NCBI GenBank assembly: GCA_964358765.1
Contig: CAYHPN010000001.1
Location: 91,182-155,181, forward strand
DNA: 64,000 nt
Direction of reading: 5' to 3'
Origin: Candidatus Woesearchaeota archaeon
GTDB taxonomy: Archaea; Nanobdellota; Nanobdellia; Pacearchaeales; GW2011-AR1
The translations under genes and the position numbers were made by a program. The notes beneath the pieces are model-generated. The model worked only from the letters and a program-made list of their open reading frames with translations. It was not told where the DNA came from and searched no databases. Below, piece after piece: positions 3,283 through 50,679 of this stretch (positions within the stretch are counted from its first letter, which is position 1; every line of letters starts with the position of its first letter).

Positions 3283-3915
3283 ATGAATAAATCATCAAAT
3301 TTGATATCTAGCGGACTGATTGGAATAGTAGCGGGGGCTGGTATTTTATTGAATGGATGCGGAGATCCTAAAAAAACCGGTCCGGAACTATTACAAATAG
3401 TTATGGGCGTGAATGCAAGGGGGAACAGGAACTTAACACATGAGCAGAGAGCTTTTCTTCTAACAGGTGAAAAATATTTGAGAGATGAAAGAAGAAATCG
3501 GGCAATTGAAAGAAGCGGAACGACTATTATTTATAATAATCCAGTTGAGCAAGAAATGGAATTTAATCCCGACCAAAAATATTTATTTTTTGTTGGTAAA
3601 GATATCCCTGATTTTAGCAGTATTGAAGAAGATAATTACTTAGAAAATCCTCAGTTGAATAGAAGACATTTAAAATATAATGAACCTGTTTTATTGGGGG
3701 ATCTTATTTTTAATTGTCCTGGAAAAAAGGCAGAGATTGTATTACTAACTCCAAGCGGGAGAGAATTAAAATTTGGTAAACAAAATATAAGATTAAATAA
3801 ACATCCGCACTACATCAATTTAGATCCTGATCAAATTGAGAAGGGAAGAAATACTCTTAGAGGCTATATAAATGGCAGGGAAGTTTGCGAATTTGATTTT
3901 TATATTAAAGAATAG
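3283..3915 (+). CDS. putative lipoprotein, function unknown
   Basis: N-terminus SSGLIGIVAGAGILLNGCGDP has a lipobox-like L-N-G-C. Its own TATA-like CATTTAAAAAG lies about 22 nt upstream. Confidence 0.6.
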   Translation: MNKSSNLISSGLIGIVAGAGILLNGCGDPKKTGPELLQIVMGVNARGNRNLTHEQRAFLLTGEKYLRDERRNRAIERSGTTIIYNNPVEQEMEFNPDQKYLFFVGKDIPDFSSIEEDNYLENPQLNRRHLKYNEPVLLGDLIFNCPGKKAEIVLLTPSGRELKFGKQNIRLNKHPHYINLDPDQIEKGRNTLRGYINGREVCEFDFYIKE

Positions 3916-3955
3916 TTTTCAAAATATTTATAAGCATTAATTATCTGATTTATTG

Positions 3956-6127
3956 ATGAATAAGAGGGGCAGTAATTATCGTATTTATAATGTGGCAATT
4001 ATGCAAATGTTTTTATTGTTCTTATCTCTTTTTGCTTTCTCTTTTTTTATTTCTGAAATTGAATTAGCTAGTGCATTAGATGCAACTCCCGTAGGAGATC
4101 CAAAATTTGGCGGGGGAGTCGGTTTAACAAATGAACCGCCACCATCAGTAACTACGACTGCTGCAAAAACAACAACGGAAACAGCAGCAGCTGAATCCCG
4201 AGGAATATTTGATATTATTGGAGATATTTACGGAGGAGACGCATTCGCTGTTGAAGCTGGTGCTGAAGGGGGATTTACTTCCGGATTAAATTCAATAATT
4301 GGAGGAGCAGCTTGGGGGTTCACAGTTTATTTTGGTGTTAAAATGATCGGAAAATTGTTTGGCCTTGATAAGCCTTTAGTTGATTCATTATCTGCTGCTG
4401 CAGGTCTAGGGGTTGGAGCAGGAGTTACTGCAAGTTATCTTGTGAGTAATGGGGTATTGGGAAGCACTGTAGCTGGAGCACCGCAGATTTGGGGGATGAG
4501 CGCTAATGCATTTGGTGCTGTAGTTGGTATAGGAGTAGGTGTAGCTGTTTTACTTTTAACATATAAGAAAGAAAAAAGAGAAGTAATAAGCTTTGAGTGT
4601 TTGCCTTGGGAACCTCCACTAGGAGGAGAGAAATGCGACCAGTGCAATGATCCTATTAAACCATGTACAGAGTATAGATGCAAAAGCCTTGGACAAGGGT
4701 GCGAAATAATAAATCAAGGAACTGAACAAGAAATGTGCTTTTGGAAGAACAAAGGAGATACTCGGGCGCCAAAGATTAATACAGATAAAAATAAATTTAA
4801 ACCACAAGGATTAGAATTTAGACCTGATGCTGCAATAAGCATGCCCAATACTGGATTTAAAATAATTGATCCTAAAGCAAATAATGGATGTATTGAAGCT
4901 TTTACTAAACTTGAATTTGGAATAACAACAAATGAACCTGCACAATGCAGAATAGATTATGAACTTACCAAGACATATGATGAAATGGCATATTTATTTG
5001 GAGAGAGCAATTATTTTGATTATAATCATACTCAACAATTGAAAATTCCTGATCCTGCAAATACTGTTGGAGTTCCTATACTGTATACAAAGAAAAATGG
5101 AGTAAATACCATGACTTTATATGCTAGATGCATTGATGGAAACGGAAACGGAGGAAATTCAGGAGCTGTAGCATTTAGTTTCTGTGTAAAAGAGGGACCT
5201 GATACTTCGCCGCCAGTAGTTGAAGGCGGTTCAATAGACAGTGGGAGTTTTGTACAATTTAATGCAGATAAAGTACCGTATGAACTATATACAAATGAAA
5301 TTAGTGAATGTAAATGGAGTAGACTAGATAAAGCATTTGAGGACATGGAGAATACTATGAGTTGTGCAAATCAAGTTGAACAAATAAATGCAAATTTAGA
5401 TTATGTTTGTTCAACTGAACTGACTGGAATAAAGAATGATTTTGACAATAAATTTTATTTTAGATGCAAAGACTTGCCTGGGAAAGCAGAAAAAGATAGG
5501 AATGTAATGTCCACAAGTTTCCCATTGACTCTGAAAGGAACAAAGAATACTCTAGCAATAGAACAAGTCGGACCTAATGGTACAATCACTGGTGGAGAGA
5601 GTGTAGTGGGAGTAAATCTAGTTGTTAAGACATCTTTTGGAGTTGAAGATGGTAAAGCAGTTTGCGCATATTCCTTAGAAGAAAATGATTTAGCAAATTA
5701 CATAGATATGGATGAGACTGACAATTATTTGCATAACCAGACTCAATTCTTACCTCAAGGAAGTTATAAATACTTCTTCAAGTGTGTGGATGCTGGAGGA
5801 AATCTTGCTAGTGCGTCGACTTCGTTTATTGTAAAAACTGATACTGCTGAACCTTTAATCGCAAGAATATTTAGAGATGGATCAAGTATGAAAATAATTA
5901 CAAATGAAGATGGAGGTTGCGTATACTCTCTGAATTCCTGCAGTTATGATTATGAAAGCGGAACTGGATTTGTATATGATACTTCAGCTTCTGGAGGATT
6001 CAATAAAAAAGTACATTATACTGATTGGGATACATCTAAGACTTATTATATTAAATGTCAGGACATAAATGGAAAGAAACCACGATCAGATAAGTGCAGT
6101 GCAGTTATACAGGGAAGTGAGCTTTAG
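3956..6127 (+). CDS. large surface protein: signal peptide, Thr-rich linker, Gly/Ala-rich hydrophobic region, Cys-knot segment and four tandem ~100-aa Cys-containing repeats
   Basis: The track starts at TTG 3953; ATG 3956 lies 25 nt after TATA-like ATATTTATA. Repeat units are recognisable around CRIDYELTKTYDEM...YARCIDGNGN, CKWSRLDKAFEDM...YFRCKDLPGK, CAYSLEENDLANY...FFKCVDAGGN and CVYSLNSCSYDYE...YIKCQDINGK. Confidence 0.75.
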   Translation: MNKRGSNYRIYNVAIMQMFLLFLSLFAFSFFISEIELASALDATPVGDPKFGGGVGLTNEPPPSVTTTAAKTTTETAAAESRGIFDIIGDIYGGDAFAVEAGAEGGFTSGLNSIIGGAAWGFTVYFGVKMIGKLFGLDKPLVDSLSAAAGLGVGAGVTASYLVSNGVLGSTVAGAPQIWGMSANAFGAVVGIGVGVAVLLLTYKKEKREVISFECLPWEPPLGGEKCDQCNDPIKPCTEYRCKSLGQGCEIINQGTEQEMCFWKNKGDTRAPKINTDKNKFKPQGLEFRPDAAISMPNTGFKIIDPKANNGCIEAFTKLEFGITTNEPAQCRIDYELTKTYDEMAYLFGESNYFDYNHTQQLKIPDPANTVGVPILYTKKNGVNTMTLYARCIDGNGNGGNSGAVAFSFCVKEGPDTSPPVVEGGSIDSGSFVQFNADKVPYELYTNEISECKWSRLDKAFEDMENTMSCANQVEQINANLDYVCSTELTGIKNDFDNKFYFRCKDLPGKAEKDRNVMSTSFPLTLKGTKNTLAIEQVGPNGTITGGESVVGVNLVVKTSFGVEDGKAVCAYSLEENDLANYIDMDETDNYLHNQTQFLPQGSYKYFFKCVDAGGNLASASTSFIVKTDTAEPLIARIFRDGSSMKIITNEDGGCVYSLNSCSYDYESGTGFVYDTSASGGFNKKVHYTDWDTSKTYYIKCQDINGKKPRSDKCSAVIQGSEL

Positions 6128-46039: not shown

Positions 46040-46336
46040 TCAATCGCTTATTGAGCTTTCTGGAAAACCCAGCTTTAAAAGGATTGGCCTTACATTTTTT
46101 TTGTGGTCTCCTTGCAATTCGATGACGCCGTTTTTCACAGTGCCTCCGCATGCAAGCCCTTCTTTAAGCTTTTTTCCTATTTCTTTTATATCTACGTGCT
46201 TATCGAATCCCTGGACGAGTGTTATTTTTTTTCCGTATCTCCTCGCCTCGGTCATCACCTTTATTTGCTGTTCGCTCTTCGCGATTTCTTCAAACACGTC
46301 CGATTCACTTGGTAGTCCGAACTGGTTTGAATCCAT
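46040..46336 (-). CDS. sui1: translation initiation factor aSUI1 (eIF1 homolog)
   Basis: RRYGKKITLVQGFD...GKKLKEGLACGGTVKNGVIELQGDHKKNVRPILLKLGF. Confidence 0.8.
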   Translation of the reverse strand: MDSNQFGLPSESDVFEEIAKSEQQIKVMTEARRYGKKITLVQGFDKHVDIKEIGKKLKEGLACGGTVKNGVIELQGDHKKNVRPILLKLGFPESSISD

Positions 46337-47241: not shown

Positions 47242-47868
47242 TTATTTTTTTGCTCCCATTTTGAATTCTTTAGCCTTTAAGATTACATTTGATCTCTTAG
47301 CTCTTTTTCCGCCGGCTCTTTGTGGTCTAGCCGCCCAACTTGTTGAACCGATATAAATTCTTGTTTTATCTAAATCCAATCCTGAAGAAATTACATTTCC
47401 CTTTAATCCTTTTAACAAGTTTATGAACTCTATTGATGCATTTATAGGGTATCTTCCTGACATCATACCTTTACCTTTTCTATGAGGAATTTCGCCTTTA
47501 AAAGGTATTGCCCTTTTGTAAGCAATAACTTCTCTAAGTTGAGAAATTGCAAGATCGATTGATTTATTTTTAATGAAACTACAAATAAACATTCCATGTT
47601 TTTTTGAGATATGCAAATTAGATCCGTATGCAACTGCTTCATATTTTTTAACTTTTGGTTTCTCGAGGGCTTTCTTGGCTTTGTCTTCTTTCTTTTCAGA
47701 TAGGGTTTCTTTTTTATCATCTGATTTTGCTGGGTGCTTATGCTCGACTTTAGCTTCTAGACTATGGGCGGGAACTACAGAATCTGATTTAGGTGCAGGG
47801 GTTTTTTCTTCGACTTTTGCATCTACTTTTTTTACTTTCTCTGCTTGTTTTTTTGTTTCTTCTGTCAT
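47242..47868 (-). CDS. rpl22: ribosomal protein uL22 with a ~75-aa K/E-rich N-terminal extension
   Basis: Core ...LHISKKHGMFICSFIKNKSIDLAISQLREVIAYKRAIPF... Start placed at ATG 47868, 1 nt after the uS19 stop. Confidence 0.8.
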   Translation of the reverse strand: MTEETKKQAEKVKKVDAKVEEKTPAPKSDSVVPAHSLEAKVEHKHPAKSDDKKETLSEKKEDKAKKALEKPKVKKYEAVAYGSNLHISKKHGMFICSFIKNKSIDLAISQLREVIAYKRAIPFKGEIPHRKGKGMMSGRYPINASIEFINLLKGLKGNVISSGLDLDKTRIYIGSTSWAARPQRAGGKRAKRSNVILKAKEFKMGAKK

Positions 47869-47869
47869 T

Positions 47870-48283
47870 TTACTTCTTCTGAGCTTTGGATCCTTTTGTT
47901 GCTCCAATACCTGCGCTTCCATGATTTACTTTACTTCTTGTCATTGCAAACTCTCCTAAACGGTGACCAATCATTTCATGAGTTATTGTAATATCTTGGA
48001 ACATTTTTCCGTTGTAGATTCCAATTGTTAGACCTACAAGCTTTGGAACTATAACTAAATCACGCAAGTGTGTTCTTATTTTTCTGCTTTTTGATGCCTG
48101 GCTTTCACAAAGTTTTACAAATTTTTCTATGACATCAAAATTTCTATTTATGGATCTTCTGCTTCTGGAAGGCATGAATTTTGCAGATTCTCTTACGTCT
48201 AAACCTTTTAGATAATCTAAAGGTTTGCCCCTGTAGATATATTCTTTGCTCTTTACTTCTACGTTTTGTTTTTCATCAGCCAT
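47870..48283 (-). CDS. rps19: ribosomal protein uS19
   Basis: ...RTHLRDLVIVPKLVGLTIGIYNGKMFQDITITHEMIGHRLGEFAMTR... Start placed at ATG 48283, 1 nt after the upstream stop, with a GGAG 12 nt upstream. Confidence 0.85.
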   Translation of the reverse strand: MADEKQNVEVKSKEYIYRGKPLDYLKGLDVRESAKFMPSRSRRSINRNFDVIEKFVKLCESQASKSRKIRTHLRDLVIVPKLVGLTIGIYNGKMFQDITITHEMIGHRLGEFAMTRSKVNHGSAGIGATKGSKAQKK

Positions 48284-48284
48284 T

Positions 48285-48641
48285 TTATATTTGTTCTCCT
48301 GATTGTTCTCTCGCTTCATTTAGCTCTTCTAATAATGCTACAGCTTCATCTCTTTCTTCTCTTGGAACAAAAGCGATTTTTGCATAATGTAACTGCCTAA
48401 GACTAAACTCTTGCTCTCCATTTGTAATCTGATCTTCACCAAACATACGAATTTTGACATGGAGTATTGTTAATAATCTAACACTTTGCAAAGAACCATT
48501 CAATCCAAATCTCAAGTTACCTTCAACATCCCCAAGATAAACATGAGGCACCATTGTCTCTCCAATAGCATATTCTCGTCCAACTACCAACTCTGGTCTT
48601 TTCCATTCAAATCCTTGATTAGATGTTTTTTCTTCAGTCAT
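48285..48641 (-). CDS. unassigned 118-aa protein inserted between uL2 and uS19
   Basis: ATG is 2 nt after the uL2 stop; stop is 1 nt before the uS19 ATG. No match to any ribosomal protein I recognise. Confidence 0.55.
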   Translation of the reverse strand: MTEEKTSNQGFEWKRPELVVGREYAIGETMVPHVYLGDVEGNLRFGLNGSLQSVRLLTILHVKIRMFGEDQITNGEQEFSLRQLHYAKIAFVPREERDEAVALLEELNEAREQSGEQI

Positions 48642-48643
48642 TT

Positions 48644-49339
48644 TTATTTTTTCCTCCCTGTTCTTCTAGGTCTTAAGTGTCCAACTTTCTTTCCTGGAGG
48701 AGCGTTTCTAACTGCAATCTTGGATTTAATTCTTTTACCTCTACCAGATCCGAAAGGATGATCTACTGCGTTAACTTTAACTGCGGAAGTTCTTGGCCAT
48801 AATTTGTTTCTAGCTTTCATTTTGTAATGTTTTTTACCTGCAGTTACAAATGGTTTTAATAATCTTCCGTCTCCAGCTATAACTCCTAGAGTTGCTCTGC
48901 AATTATCATTTAATGTGATTTCATTTTTATTAGGCATTAATATTATCGCAGAACTTTTCTCTTTTTTTACTAAAGTAGCAAAACTTCCTGAAGTTCTAAT
49001 CATTTTTCCCCCGTCGCCTGGATTTCTTTCTAAGTTGTAAATTTTAGATCCGAGTGGAATGCTTTTTAAGAATGAGATGTCTCCTTCTTTAGGCGTTTCG
49101 TTTCCAACTATAATTTTTTGTCCGACAAAAGAGCCAGTAAAAGCAGGAATATAAGAAATTTTATTATTTAAATTGAGTTTTAATAATGGGGCTGAGTGTG
49201 CTGCAGAATGAAAAATTCTGTCAATGTGAGCTTCTCCCGAAATTGATGGATATTTAATTGTGTATATGAAAGCTTTTTTTCTAACTTGATATGTTGGTCC
49301 GCCTTTACCCCTTGCCTGTTGAATTATGCTTTTTCCCAT
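48644..49339 (-). CDS. rpl2: ribosomal protein uL2
   Basis: ...GDGGKMIRTSGSFATLV... and VNAVDHPFGSGRGKR. Confidence 0.9.
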   Translation of the reverse strand: MGKSIIQQARGKGGPTYQVRKKAFIYTIKYPSISGEAHIDRIFHSAAHSAPLLKLNLNNKISYIPAFTGSFVGQKIIVGNETPKEGDISFLKSIPLGSKIYNLERNPGDGGKMIRTSGSFATLVKKEKSSAIILMPNKNEITLNDNCRATLGVIAGDGRLLKPFVTAGKKHYKMKARNKLWPRTSAVKVNAVDHPFGSGRGKRIKSKIAVRNAPPGKKVGHLRPRRTGRKK

Positions 49340-49583: not shown

Positions 49584-50356
49584 TTTTTACTCCCTATGTG
49601 ATTTAATTCTGAAATTGCTTTTTCAGTAAACAAAGTCAATCTTCCTAATGGGTAAAGATCTGCGATTTCTAGATTTCTAATATTTCTAATTTCAAACCCG
49701 CTGAATGTTGCTTTTTCATCTTTGCCTGTTAAAATTAGAATTCCTGCATTTGATTTATATTTTCTTCCTCTCTTTTTCCCTTTTCCTGCTCGCACAACTT
49801 TATTTTTTAATGCTAACTCAATATTCTTTCCAAGAATTTTTTTTAATGTAGAAACGAGAGATTTTGTTTTTTGAGGTAATGAATCAATGATGAAAGGAGC
49901 GTGATCGAGAGTATGTAATGTTTCGTATCTTTTTTGTATAAGAGAAATAGAAGATGTAGCAGCAATACCAGAATTAATTGCCAAGGCAATTTCTTTTTTA
50001 TTTGTTTTTTTATCGGCGTAAATTCCAGTTGGAGGGAATGCTCTTCTTCCGCCTCTGGCAGAAGGCATGTTGGAAGCGACCCAATAGAAATTTGTTCCAC
50101 GTCTAGACATTGTTTTTCTTGGAACTCTTGAAATACCTTTTCCATAATGGCCTTTCCAGTCATGTCTTTTGTGGCTAATTTGATTATATCCTTGCTGCCT
50201 TATACCTGCACCGATTTTTGGAGAGTAGGGTTGAATTTTTTTAGATACTTCAAAGTGCTTCATTACAATGTCTTCTCTTATTGGAGAAGAAAATACTGAT
50301 GGTAAGTCTATTTGACCTTTCTTCTCGCCTGCTGAACTATATAATGTTGTTTTCAT
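49580..50356 (-). CDS. rpl4: ribosomal protein uL4
   Basis: ...QGYNQISHKRHDWKGHYGKGISRVPR... and position between uL3 and uL23. Confidence 0.85.
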   Translation of the reverse strand: MKTTLYSSAGEKKGQIDLPSVFSSPIREDIVMKHFEVSKKIQPYSPKIGAGIRQQGYNQISHKRHDWKGHYGKGISRVPRKTMSRRGTNFYWVASNMPSARGGRRAFPPTGIYADKKTNKKEIALAINSGIAATSSISLIQKRYETLHTLDHAPFIIDSLPQKTKSLVSTLKKILGKNIELALKNKVVRAGKGKKRGRKYKSNAGILILTGKDEKATFSGFEIRNIRNLEIADLYPLGRLTLFTEKAISELNHIGSKK

Positions 50357-50679
50357 AGTCCGAAACTCCTTAGATATGCGTGAGTTGTAATTTTTTTATC
50401 TTCATTATGAATAGTATCCGACATATAATATCCAGATATTAATTTCAACGCCCCGTTAGAAATCTTTAATTTATCACTCTGTGTTAAAAATACTTCTCTA
50501 GGCTGTCCACTTTCATATCTGCTTAATAATGTAAATTCATCATTATCGGATCTGTACATACATCCATCAGAAGTTGCAATGAACTCTCCAGGCTTTAAAT
50601 TATCTAAGTCATCTAAAGATCTTAAAATTACTACTTCCATTTTTCTCTCCATTGTTGTTTCTGATTCTCCTATTCCCAT
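50353..50679 (-). CDS. unassigned ~95-108-aa protein inserted between uL3 and uL4
   Basis: First ATG is 1 nt after the uL3 stop. Internal ATG 50640 is preceded by GGAGAG. Its stop overlaps the uL4 ATG (ATGA), and the uL4 GGAG lies inside its 3' end. Confidence 0.5.
   Translation of the reverse strand: MGIGESETTMERKMEVVILRSLDDLDNLKPGEFIATSDGCMYRSDNDEFTLLSRYESGQPREVFLTQSDKLKISNGALKLISGYYMSDTIHNEDKKITTHAYLRSFGL

Follow-up and report, generated by a model that had tools for sequence, protein, structure and literature searches.

Several described systems resemble the gene examined here, a small open reading frame (ORF) that we call ins2 and that lies between the uL2 and uS19 genes in a ribosomal-protein operon of a DPANN archaeon of the Pacearchaeota/Woesearchaeota type from groundwater (Candidatus Woesearchaeota; the window, that is, the whole stretch analysed, comprises 64,000 nucleotides of contig CAYHPN010000001.1). 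SUI1/aIF1, encoded further down the same operon, and the RNase P protein Rpp29 of other archaea are, like ins2, non-ribosomal cistrons lodged between ribosomal-protein genes with tight spacing and no evident promoter of their own. Their position, however, is fixed, and the families to which they belong are widely conserved and function in known ways in translation or RNA processing, whereas ins2 has one homolog, occurs in two lineages and sits in a slot that is empty or otherwise filled in relatives. The unassigned ORFs c, d and e in the spc operon of Methanococcus vannielii provide a second parallel. These later proved to be eS4, eL32 and eL19, proteins that are basic and conserved across Archaea and Eukarya, whereas ins2 is acidic and narrowly distributed.

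Two further parallels come from mobile DNA. Phage morons are extra, unrelated genes placed exactly between genes that adjoin in relatives; they are patchy among close relatives, usually serve accessory functions and typically bring their own promoter and terminator. The placement of ins2 is that of a moron, but neither promoter nor terminator is seen: there is no TATA-like box and no T-run of five or more within or at the borders of 48285-48641, a weak test since archaeal signals are hard to call at 31% GC. Moreover, ins2 appears to rely on operon transcription and translational coupling, and its host array is an essential cellular operon rather than a phage late operon. Integron cassettes share with ins2 and its kin that they are small ORFs without promoters, most of them orphans, that depend on a resident promoter and differ in content between relatives. 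Yet they form one array, whereas inserts of the ins2 type are scattered among essential genes at several junctions, and ins2 has no linked integrase and gives no evidence of site-specific recombination. Nor is there an attC site at its 3' end: spacers of 2 and 1 nt flank the gene, and the stretch folds no more stably than shuffled sequence (z-score +0.6). No recombinase lies within the window's operon; IntI was not searched for in the genome. In the literature we found no description of variable orphan genes inside ribosomal-protein operons of DPANN archaea.

Against this background, ins2 is best read as a lineage-specific promoterless cistron placed precisely where uL2 stops and uS19 starts. 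It exemplifies a clade-wide habit in which unrelated small genes are gained, lost and moved among the junctions of the uL3-uL4-uL23-uL2-uS19 block. Since it is one of many such genes that come and go in the operon, it is most likely a passenger rather than a new ribosomal protein; on balance we think it probably an accessory gene that exploits strong constitutive expression.

A protein-coding gene between uL2 and uS19

The operon runs along the minus strand in the order uL3–[ins1]–uL4–uL23–uL2–[ins2]–uS19–uL22–uS3–uL29–SUI1–uS17–uL14–uL24–eS4–uL5, where ins1 denotes a second insert, between uL3 and uL4. The initial annotation of this DNA gave the coordinates, length and spacers of ins2 and the start of uS19 as we read them (Table 1), and it allowed that codon statistics might expose the ORF as non-coding. 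They do the opposite. The in-frame codon score of ins2, 0.452 bits per codon, falls well within the range of 568 long native ORFs (0.414 ± 0.085), while the other five frames of the stretch all score negatively (-0.2 to -1.3 bits per codon), and GC content at third codon positions is 0.19, like that of the neighbours. A run of 118 open codons is not expected at the local composition (P ~2e-5), and only one of 20,000 shuffles yields such a frame. Assembly error is not at issue either: Logan contigs from two groundwater samples span both ins2 junctions with 0 mismatches, and seven contigs, assembled independently from replicate filters of a single well, carry an identical ins2 in the same context. 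The stretch matches no Rfam family and its RNA fold is not unusually stable, so that no structured RNA competes with the coding interpretation. We conclude that ins2 is a genuine protein-coding gene.

Two of these seven low-coverage contigs (L142 and L141) diverge from the genome in their first 100-115 bases, in uL23 and uL4 respectively; their ends are either assembly chimeras or derive from a co-occurring related strain. A further oddity is an antisense ORF of 62-68 amino acids (aa) that overlaps the 3' end of ins2 and the 5' end of uS19 and is open in both lineages that carry ins2. With a score of -0.2 bits per codon in its frame, it most likely reflects the GAA/AAA-rich codons of the sense strand rather than a gene.

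A word-indexed search of 5.8 billion proteins returned one homolog of ins2, P0002 (119 aa, 64% identity), which remains the sole homolog among 15 billion proteins. Its gene fills the same slot on L005, a groundwater contig of 974 bp, where the flanking uL2 C-terminus is 97% and the flanking uS19 86% identical to those of the window. The two genes differ by 84 substitutions and one whole-codon indel, and no frameshift separates them. The conserved positions lie mainly in residues 11-59 and 92-118, and the start, the stop and both Shine-Dalgarno-like motifs are retained in both lineages. At 0.41, the ratio of non-synonymous to synonymous divergence (dN/dS) greatly exceeds that of uL2 (0.01) and uS19 (0.10), the flanking genes having dS values of about 0.9-1.4, but dN is nevertheless below dS (Fisher p=8e-4), and neutral simulations with the observed spectrum leave the frame open in only 3.5% of cases. 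This comparison indicates that ins2 is under purifying selection.

These results bear on a more sceptical explanation, namely that ins2 is a non-functional or decaying ORF, recent foreign or scrambled DNA that stays open by chance and is tolerated since it preserves coupling. If that were so, we would not expect dN to fall significantly below dS, substitutions to cluster outside two blocks of the protein, the sole difference in length to be a whole codon, or codon usage to be indistinguishable from that of native genes; nor would we expect both lineages to have kept the signals at both ends. The high dN/dS, the small but real fraction of neutral simulations that keep the frame open, and the lack of further homologs, of a recognisable domain and of a confident AlphaFold2 fold all count in favour of decay, which we nevertheless judge very unlikely.

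How, then, would the gene be expressed? The junctions on both sides of ins2 repeat the operon's usual module of GGAG, A-rich spacer, TAA, 1-2 nt and ATG, and 12 of the operon's 16 genes have a GGAG 8-21 nt upstream of their start. Apparently lacking a promoter and a terminator of its own, ins2 would be made from the ribosomal-protein mRNA. Ribosomes that finish uL2 could re-initiate 2 nt downstream on ins2 by way of the GGAGG in the uL2 tail. As the initial annotation had noted, the last codons of ins2 in turn supply the GGAG for uS19, a feature also kept in the ortholog ('caggagaaagaatataaaatg'); the insertion would thus have left the coupling chain unbroken, and the ins2 tail would keep uS19 translationally coupled. 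The 3' junction, TAA-A-ATG, is the same module that is found at the empty uL2/uS19 junctions of congeners.

Read from 48283, uS19 starts M-A-D-E-K, and in congeners the gene begins with TAA-A-ATG-GCA directly after uL2. The alternative in-frame ATG, 48319, falls within the ins2 coding sequence and is not preceded by a GGAG. We prefer 48283 because the congener starts agree with it and because it alone is preceded by a GGAG.

Gain, loss and apparent movement of small genes in the clade

To trace ins2 beyond its ortholog we ran six-frame profile searches on sets of 61, 21 and 401 related genomes, ~460 relatives in all. The gene was found in none of the 20 other genus representatives, none of 40 further relatives and none of 400 genomes across the order; uS19, by comparison, was found in 41 of 41 genomes. 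Weak matches occur at chance frequency. The best extra one (G039, E=0.0016) is antisense to a ParA-like gene, and a match on C7 of the archaeon's own genome coincides in part with a longer ORF read from the other strand. Metagenome contigs and the viral contigs of IMG/VR held no relative of ins2 where scanned. Within the genome itself, blastn and tblastx searches of the whole sequence found no paralog and no DNA-level source, so that descent from a native gene through duplication or frameshift was discarded. The genome (G000; 1.75 Mb in 69 contigs, 87% complete, 1.6% contamination, GC 30.8%) is, as a separate observation, larger than all 60 listed relatives (0.4-1.5 Mb).

In a tree of five concatenated ribosomal proteins, the window's operon and L005 are sisters (support of 96 in the Shimodaira-Hasegawa-like approximate likelihood-ratio test), and genome G010 (locus L036) is the next branch (support 100). 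There, uL2 and uS19 overlap by 1 nt, with no trace of ins2. Its absence from G010 means that ins2 was either gained on the branch leading to the window and L005 or lost in G010; we favour a gain, after the split from the G010 lineage. The initial annotation had considered that absence or disruption in close relatives would speak against the ORF. Absent it is, from the 20 other genus representatives and ~440 order genomes, but in the nearest relative it is intact and apparently under purifying selection. The absence argues against a new conserved ribosomal protein, not against a real gene.

Is an interruption at this site exceptional? We mapped uL3, uL4, uL23, uL2 and uS19 in ~110 operons (those of 20 congeners, of other relatives, and 80 loci from a scan of genome collections) and measured the four junctions between them. 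Gene-sized gaps are common in relatives whose uL2 is at least 50% identical and essentially absent from more distant archaea. Among the 21 operons of the genus, 14 carry at least one gene-sized insert: nine at uL3/uL4, five at uL4/uL23, ten at uL23/uL2 and four at uL2/uS19 (the window's operon, L037, L039 and L047, to which L005 can be added). On a tree of 30 operons, slot occupancy requires at least 8, 6, 8 and 4 changes at these junctions, in the same order. The view that two separate insertions in so conserved a block are unusual, expressed in the initial annotation, therefore does not hold for this clade.

The uL2/uS19 slot itself is empty in 17 of the 21 genus operons, and in 15 of 20 congener loci examined the two genes lie 1 nt apart or overlap by 1 nt. 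Where it is occupied, the contents differ: the five inserts, L005 included, represent four unrelated ORF families, those of L037, L039 and L047 being unrelated to ins2 and to one another, without a Pfam match and with isoelectric points (pI) from 5.3 to 9.7. Unrelated ORFs have thus come to occupy the slot on at least four separate occasions. Small junction ORFs at large (n=53) have a median length of 104 aa, are mostly singletons and range in pI from 4.5 to 10.

The initial annotation saw no similarity between ins2 and the window's other insert, ins1, and none is detectable: BLASTP aligns nothing at E<=100, and hhalign of ins2 against a six-member alignment of the ins1 family returns a probability of 0.2% (E=0.28 over 10 columns). 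The two also differ in their phylogenetic distribution. G010, which lacks ins2, carries an ins1-like ORF, a weak homolog of ins1 at the same uL3/uL4 junction (E=3.7e-5, in a small database). Given these different distributions, independent acquisition, as originally proposed, is the simpler reading. No other close homolog of ins1 is on record, but its similarity to one family of small ORFs is borderline (E about 1e-3). Three genomes have a member of that family at uL23/uL2 and a fourth has one at uL3/uL4, which suggests that one cassette family has changed junctions.

Such movement raises the question of a dedicated gene-capture system, in which ins2 would be a cassette, the TAA-A-ATG junctions would act as recombination sites, and promoterless ORFs would travel between junctions and lineages in the manner of integron cassettes. 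The high turnover at four junctions, the presence of one ORF family at two different junctions in different genomes, and the fact that the inserts examined are bounded by the same stop-spacer-start module as empty sites (as seen on the edges of the four uL2/uS19 inserts whose borders were read) are all as such a system would predict. However, attC-like sites would not fit into spacers of 1-2 nt, the module is explained just as well by selection for coupling and is shared by most genes of the operon, ins2 has no second copy in the genome, and no recombinase is linked to it, the nearest mobile element being an IS6-like transposon ~3 kb upstream of the operon. We consider dedicated capture quite unlikely, and since selection for coupling accounts equally for the junction module we claim no site-specific mechanism. 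Homologous recombination through the conserved flanking genes would explain the spread equally well and be the simplest route by which the inserts arrived.

Two signs of a more specific history were followed and abandoned. Synonymous divergence of ins2 is lower than that of its flanks, as might be expected after a later transfer, but the difference is not significant (p=0.078). The two ins2 junctions are alike, as a target-site duplication would make them, but no more so than other junctions of the operon, and L005 has no duplicated uS19 5' end.

Not all inserts are small orphans. A gene of ~200-218 aa resembling a DEDD-type 3'-5' exonuclease (recognised by eye from the motifs VVDIETSG…H.NALEDA) recurs at uL4/uL23 in ten related operons and, unlike the small orphans, is conserved across genera; in L048 and L053 it is preceded by a 128-aa Nudix-like ORF. 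In L113 (CAYZTH010000009.1, a metagenome-assembled genome, MAG, labelled Woesearchaeota), the apparent order is uL3–gap–uL23–uL2–uL4–uS19; with uL4 between uL2 and uS19, this appears to be a rearrangement of the core block rather than a cassette insertion. Three further loci, L067, L075 and L099, are archaeal operons of the Pacearchaeota type in MAGs labelled 'Bacillota bacterium', 'bacterium' and 'Candidatus Omnitrophota bacterium', and are probably mislabelled bins or contaminant contigs.

What the ins2 protein might do

The predicted product has 118 residues, a pI of 4.89 and a net charge of about -8, and is flanked by proteins (uL3, uL4, uL23, uL2 and uS19) with pI values of 9.8-10.8 and charges of +14 to +34. 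By eye, residues 11-68 form a conserved core of alternating hydrophobic residues with a beta-rich look, followed by an acidic C-terminal tail (residues 93-114) through which a low-confidence AlphaFold2 model draws a helix (residues 94-114). There is no match in Pfam or NCBIfam, or among PHROGs and PADLOC profiles, at E<=1, and a profile search of PDB chains finds none at E<=10. The sequence contains no Cys/His cluster and no recognisable catalytic or metal-binding motif. The product would be a small, soluble, acidic protein that, for want of such a motif, most likely acts by binding a partner.

An exhaustive phmmer search of 1.84 billion cluster representatives retrieved only ins2 itself and two long repeat proteins: P0003, a 2621-aa repeat adhesin with SpaA/Cna-B-like repeats (E=2.5e-5), and a second repeat protein (E=3.4e-4). 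Taken at face value, these hits would make ins2 a diverged single SpaA/Cna-B-like domain, a beta-sandwich of the prealbumin fold known as repeats in bacterial surface adhesins, and residues 17-60 do align with the pattern G-x-x-Y-x-L-x-E-x-x-A-P-x-G-Y … F-x-V … D-G of each repeat. The score for P0003, however, sums 14 weak matches of which the best reaches 7.9 bits, the ortholog P0002 scores only 2.9 bits, Pfam models find nothing at E<=1 and the PDB profile search likewise finds nothing. We therefore rejected homology, which strikes us as extremely improbable; at most, the match suggests beta-hairpins in residues 17-60. An N-terminal motif, L-x-x-G-[DE]-h-h…Y-x-G…F, seemed by eye to be common to ins2 and other junction ORFs, but was supported neither by a profile tested with 4366 decoy ORFs nor by BLASTP (E about 5 and 11). 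The recurrent C-terminal endings of inserts (G-G, E-G or G-L) arise because the GGAG of the next gene sits in their last codons.

Acidity next to strongly basic neighbours invites another explanation. ins2 could encode a lineage-specific ribosome-associated protein, either an additional ribosomal protein or an acidic protein dedicated to basic uL2 or uS19 as chaperone or assembly partner, encoded beside its client and made in matching amounts. Dedicated ribosomal-protein chaperones of eukaryotes are acidic, the M. vannielii ORFs provide a precedent for unassigned ORFs that proved to be ribosomal proteins, and ins2 is part of the operon, coupled on both sides and apparently under purifying selection. 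Yet ins2 occurs in only two lineages among all relatives searched, and the slot is empty, or filled by unrelated ORFs that may be basic as well as acidic, in operons whose uL2 and uS19 are conserved. The flanking genes have dN/dS values 4- to 40-fold lower than that of ins2. The protein belongs to no curated ribosomal-protein family and shows similarity to none, is not conserved across the lineage and is not basic in composition. Narrow distribution, acidity, fast evolution and the turnover of unrelated ORFs in the slot together make a core ribosomal role unlikely, and we regard ribosome association in general as unlikely too.

We therefore return to the passenger reading. Several points weigh against it. 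The place of ins2 in the operon, its tight coupling and its presumed stoichiometric expression would equally be expected of a ribosome-associated protein. The estimate of selection comes from a single pair of sequences, and gain on the branch of the window and L005 cannot be told apart from loss in the G010 lineage. Among the RNA runs searched, none holds the ins2 stretch, and AlphaFold2, given an alignment of two sequences, yields no confident fold (mean predicted local distance difference test score, pLDDT, 35.6).

A wider version of the passenger reading is possible, though well short of probable. The uL3-uL4-uL23-uL2-uS19 block, normally the most rigid of prokaryotic gene arrays, may serve in Pacearchaeota-type DPANN archaea as an expression platform that captures, swaps and discards small promoterless orphans at stop/start junctions, possibly with exchange between lineages by recombination in the flanking genes. 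ins2 would then be one such cassette, with an accessory and fast-evolving role, for instance in interaction with hosts or viruses, that calls for expression at the level of ribosomal proteins. If the array is indeed routinely interrupted without loss of coupling, operon rigidity would reflect selection on junction architecture and not on contiguity as such. Such a clade would also be a natural source of 'dark' small proteins made at very high levels in minimal genomes, where each retained gene should matter. For annotation there is a warning: position alone is insufficient to call such ORFs new ribosomal proteins.

Coordinates and a neighbouring gene

Table 1. Features of the ins2 locus and of related loci. 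Positions without a locus name refer to the window.
Feature	Position	Strand	Remarks
ins2	48285..48641	-	118 codons; ATG at 48641, stop TAA 48287-48285; orphan protein gene
uL2 gene, upstream neighbour of ins2	48644..49339	-	231 aa; Pfam Ribosomal_L2_C, E=1.1e-31
uS19 gene, downstream neighbour of ins2	47870..48283	-	137 aa from ATG 48283; Pfam Ribosomal_S19, E=5.8e-26; start from relatives and Shine-Dalgarno position
5' junction of ins2	48642..48646	-	uL2 stop TAA 48646-48644, 2-nt spacer (AA), ins2 ATG
3' junction of ins2	48284..48287	-	stop TAA 48287-48285, 1-nt spacer (A), uS19 ATG 48283
GGAGG, Shine-Dalgarno-like motif for ins2	48653..48657	-	within last uL2 codons (…T G R K K stop), 16 nt 5' of ins2 ATG
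GGAG, Shine-Dalgarno-like motif for uS19	48296..48299	-	within last ins2 codons (…S G E Q I stop), 16 nt 5' of uS19 ATG
ins1	50353..50679	-	insert at uL3/uL4
Possible relatives of ins1	L036:2490-2774; L037:3098-3433; L047:1434-1781; L064:2711-3037; L066:844-1158		
SUI1/aIF1	46040..46336		same operon
uL22 gene	47242..47922	-	226 aa
Antisense ORF	48181..48387	+	probable by-product of sense codons
Antisense ORF in L005	L005:508-696	-	
Exonuclease-like gene	L048:2575-3228; L053:839-1471		at uL4/uL23; also in L064, L066, L069, L074, L077, L080, L082, L091
Divergent contig ends	L142:1-115; L141:1-100		in uL23 and uL4 respectively
Apparent rearrangement	L113, oriented ~3751-5463		uL4 apparently between uL2 and uS19

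One neighbour deserves a remark of its own. The uL22 gene of the window encodes a K/E/A-rich N-terminal extension of ~95 residues and matches the Pfam model Ribosomal_L22 only below the gathering cut-off (21.5 versus 28 bits). Its start overlaps uS19 by ~50 nt, and most congeners show the same arrangement.
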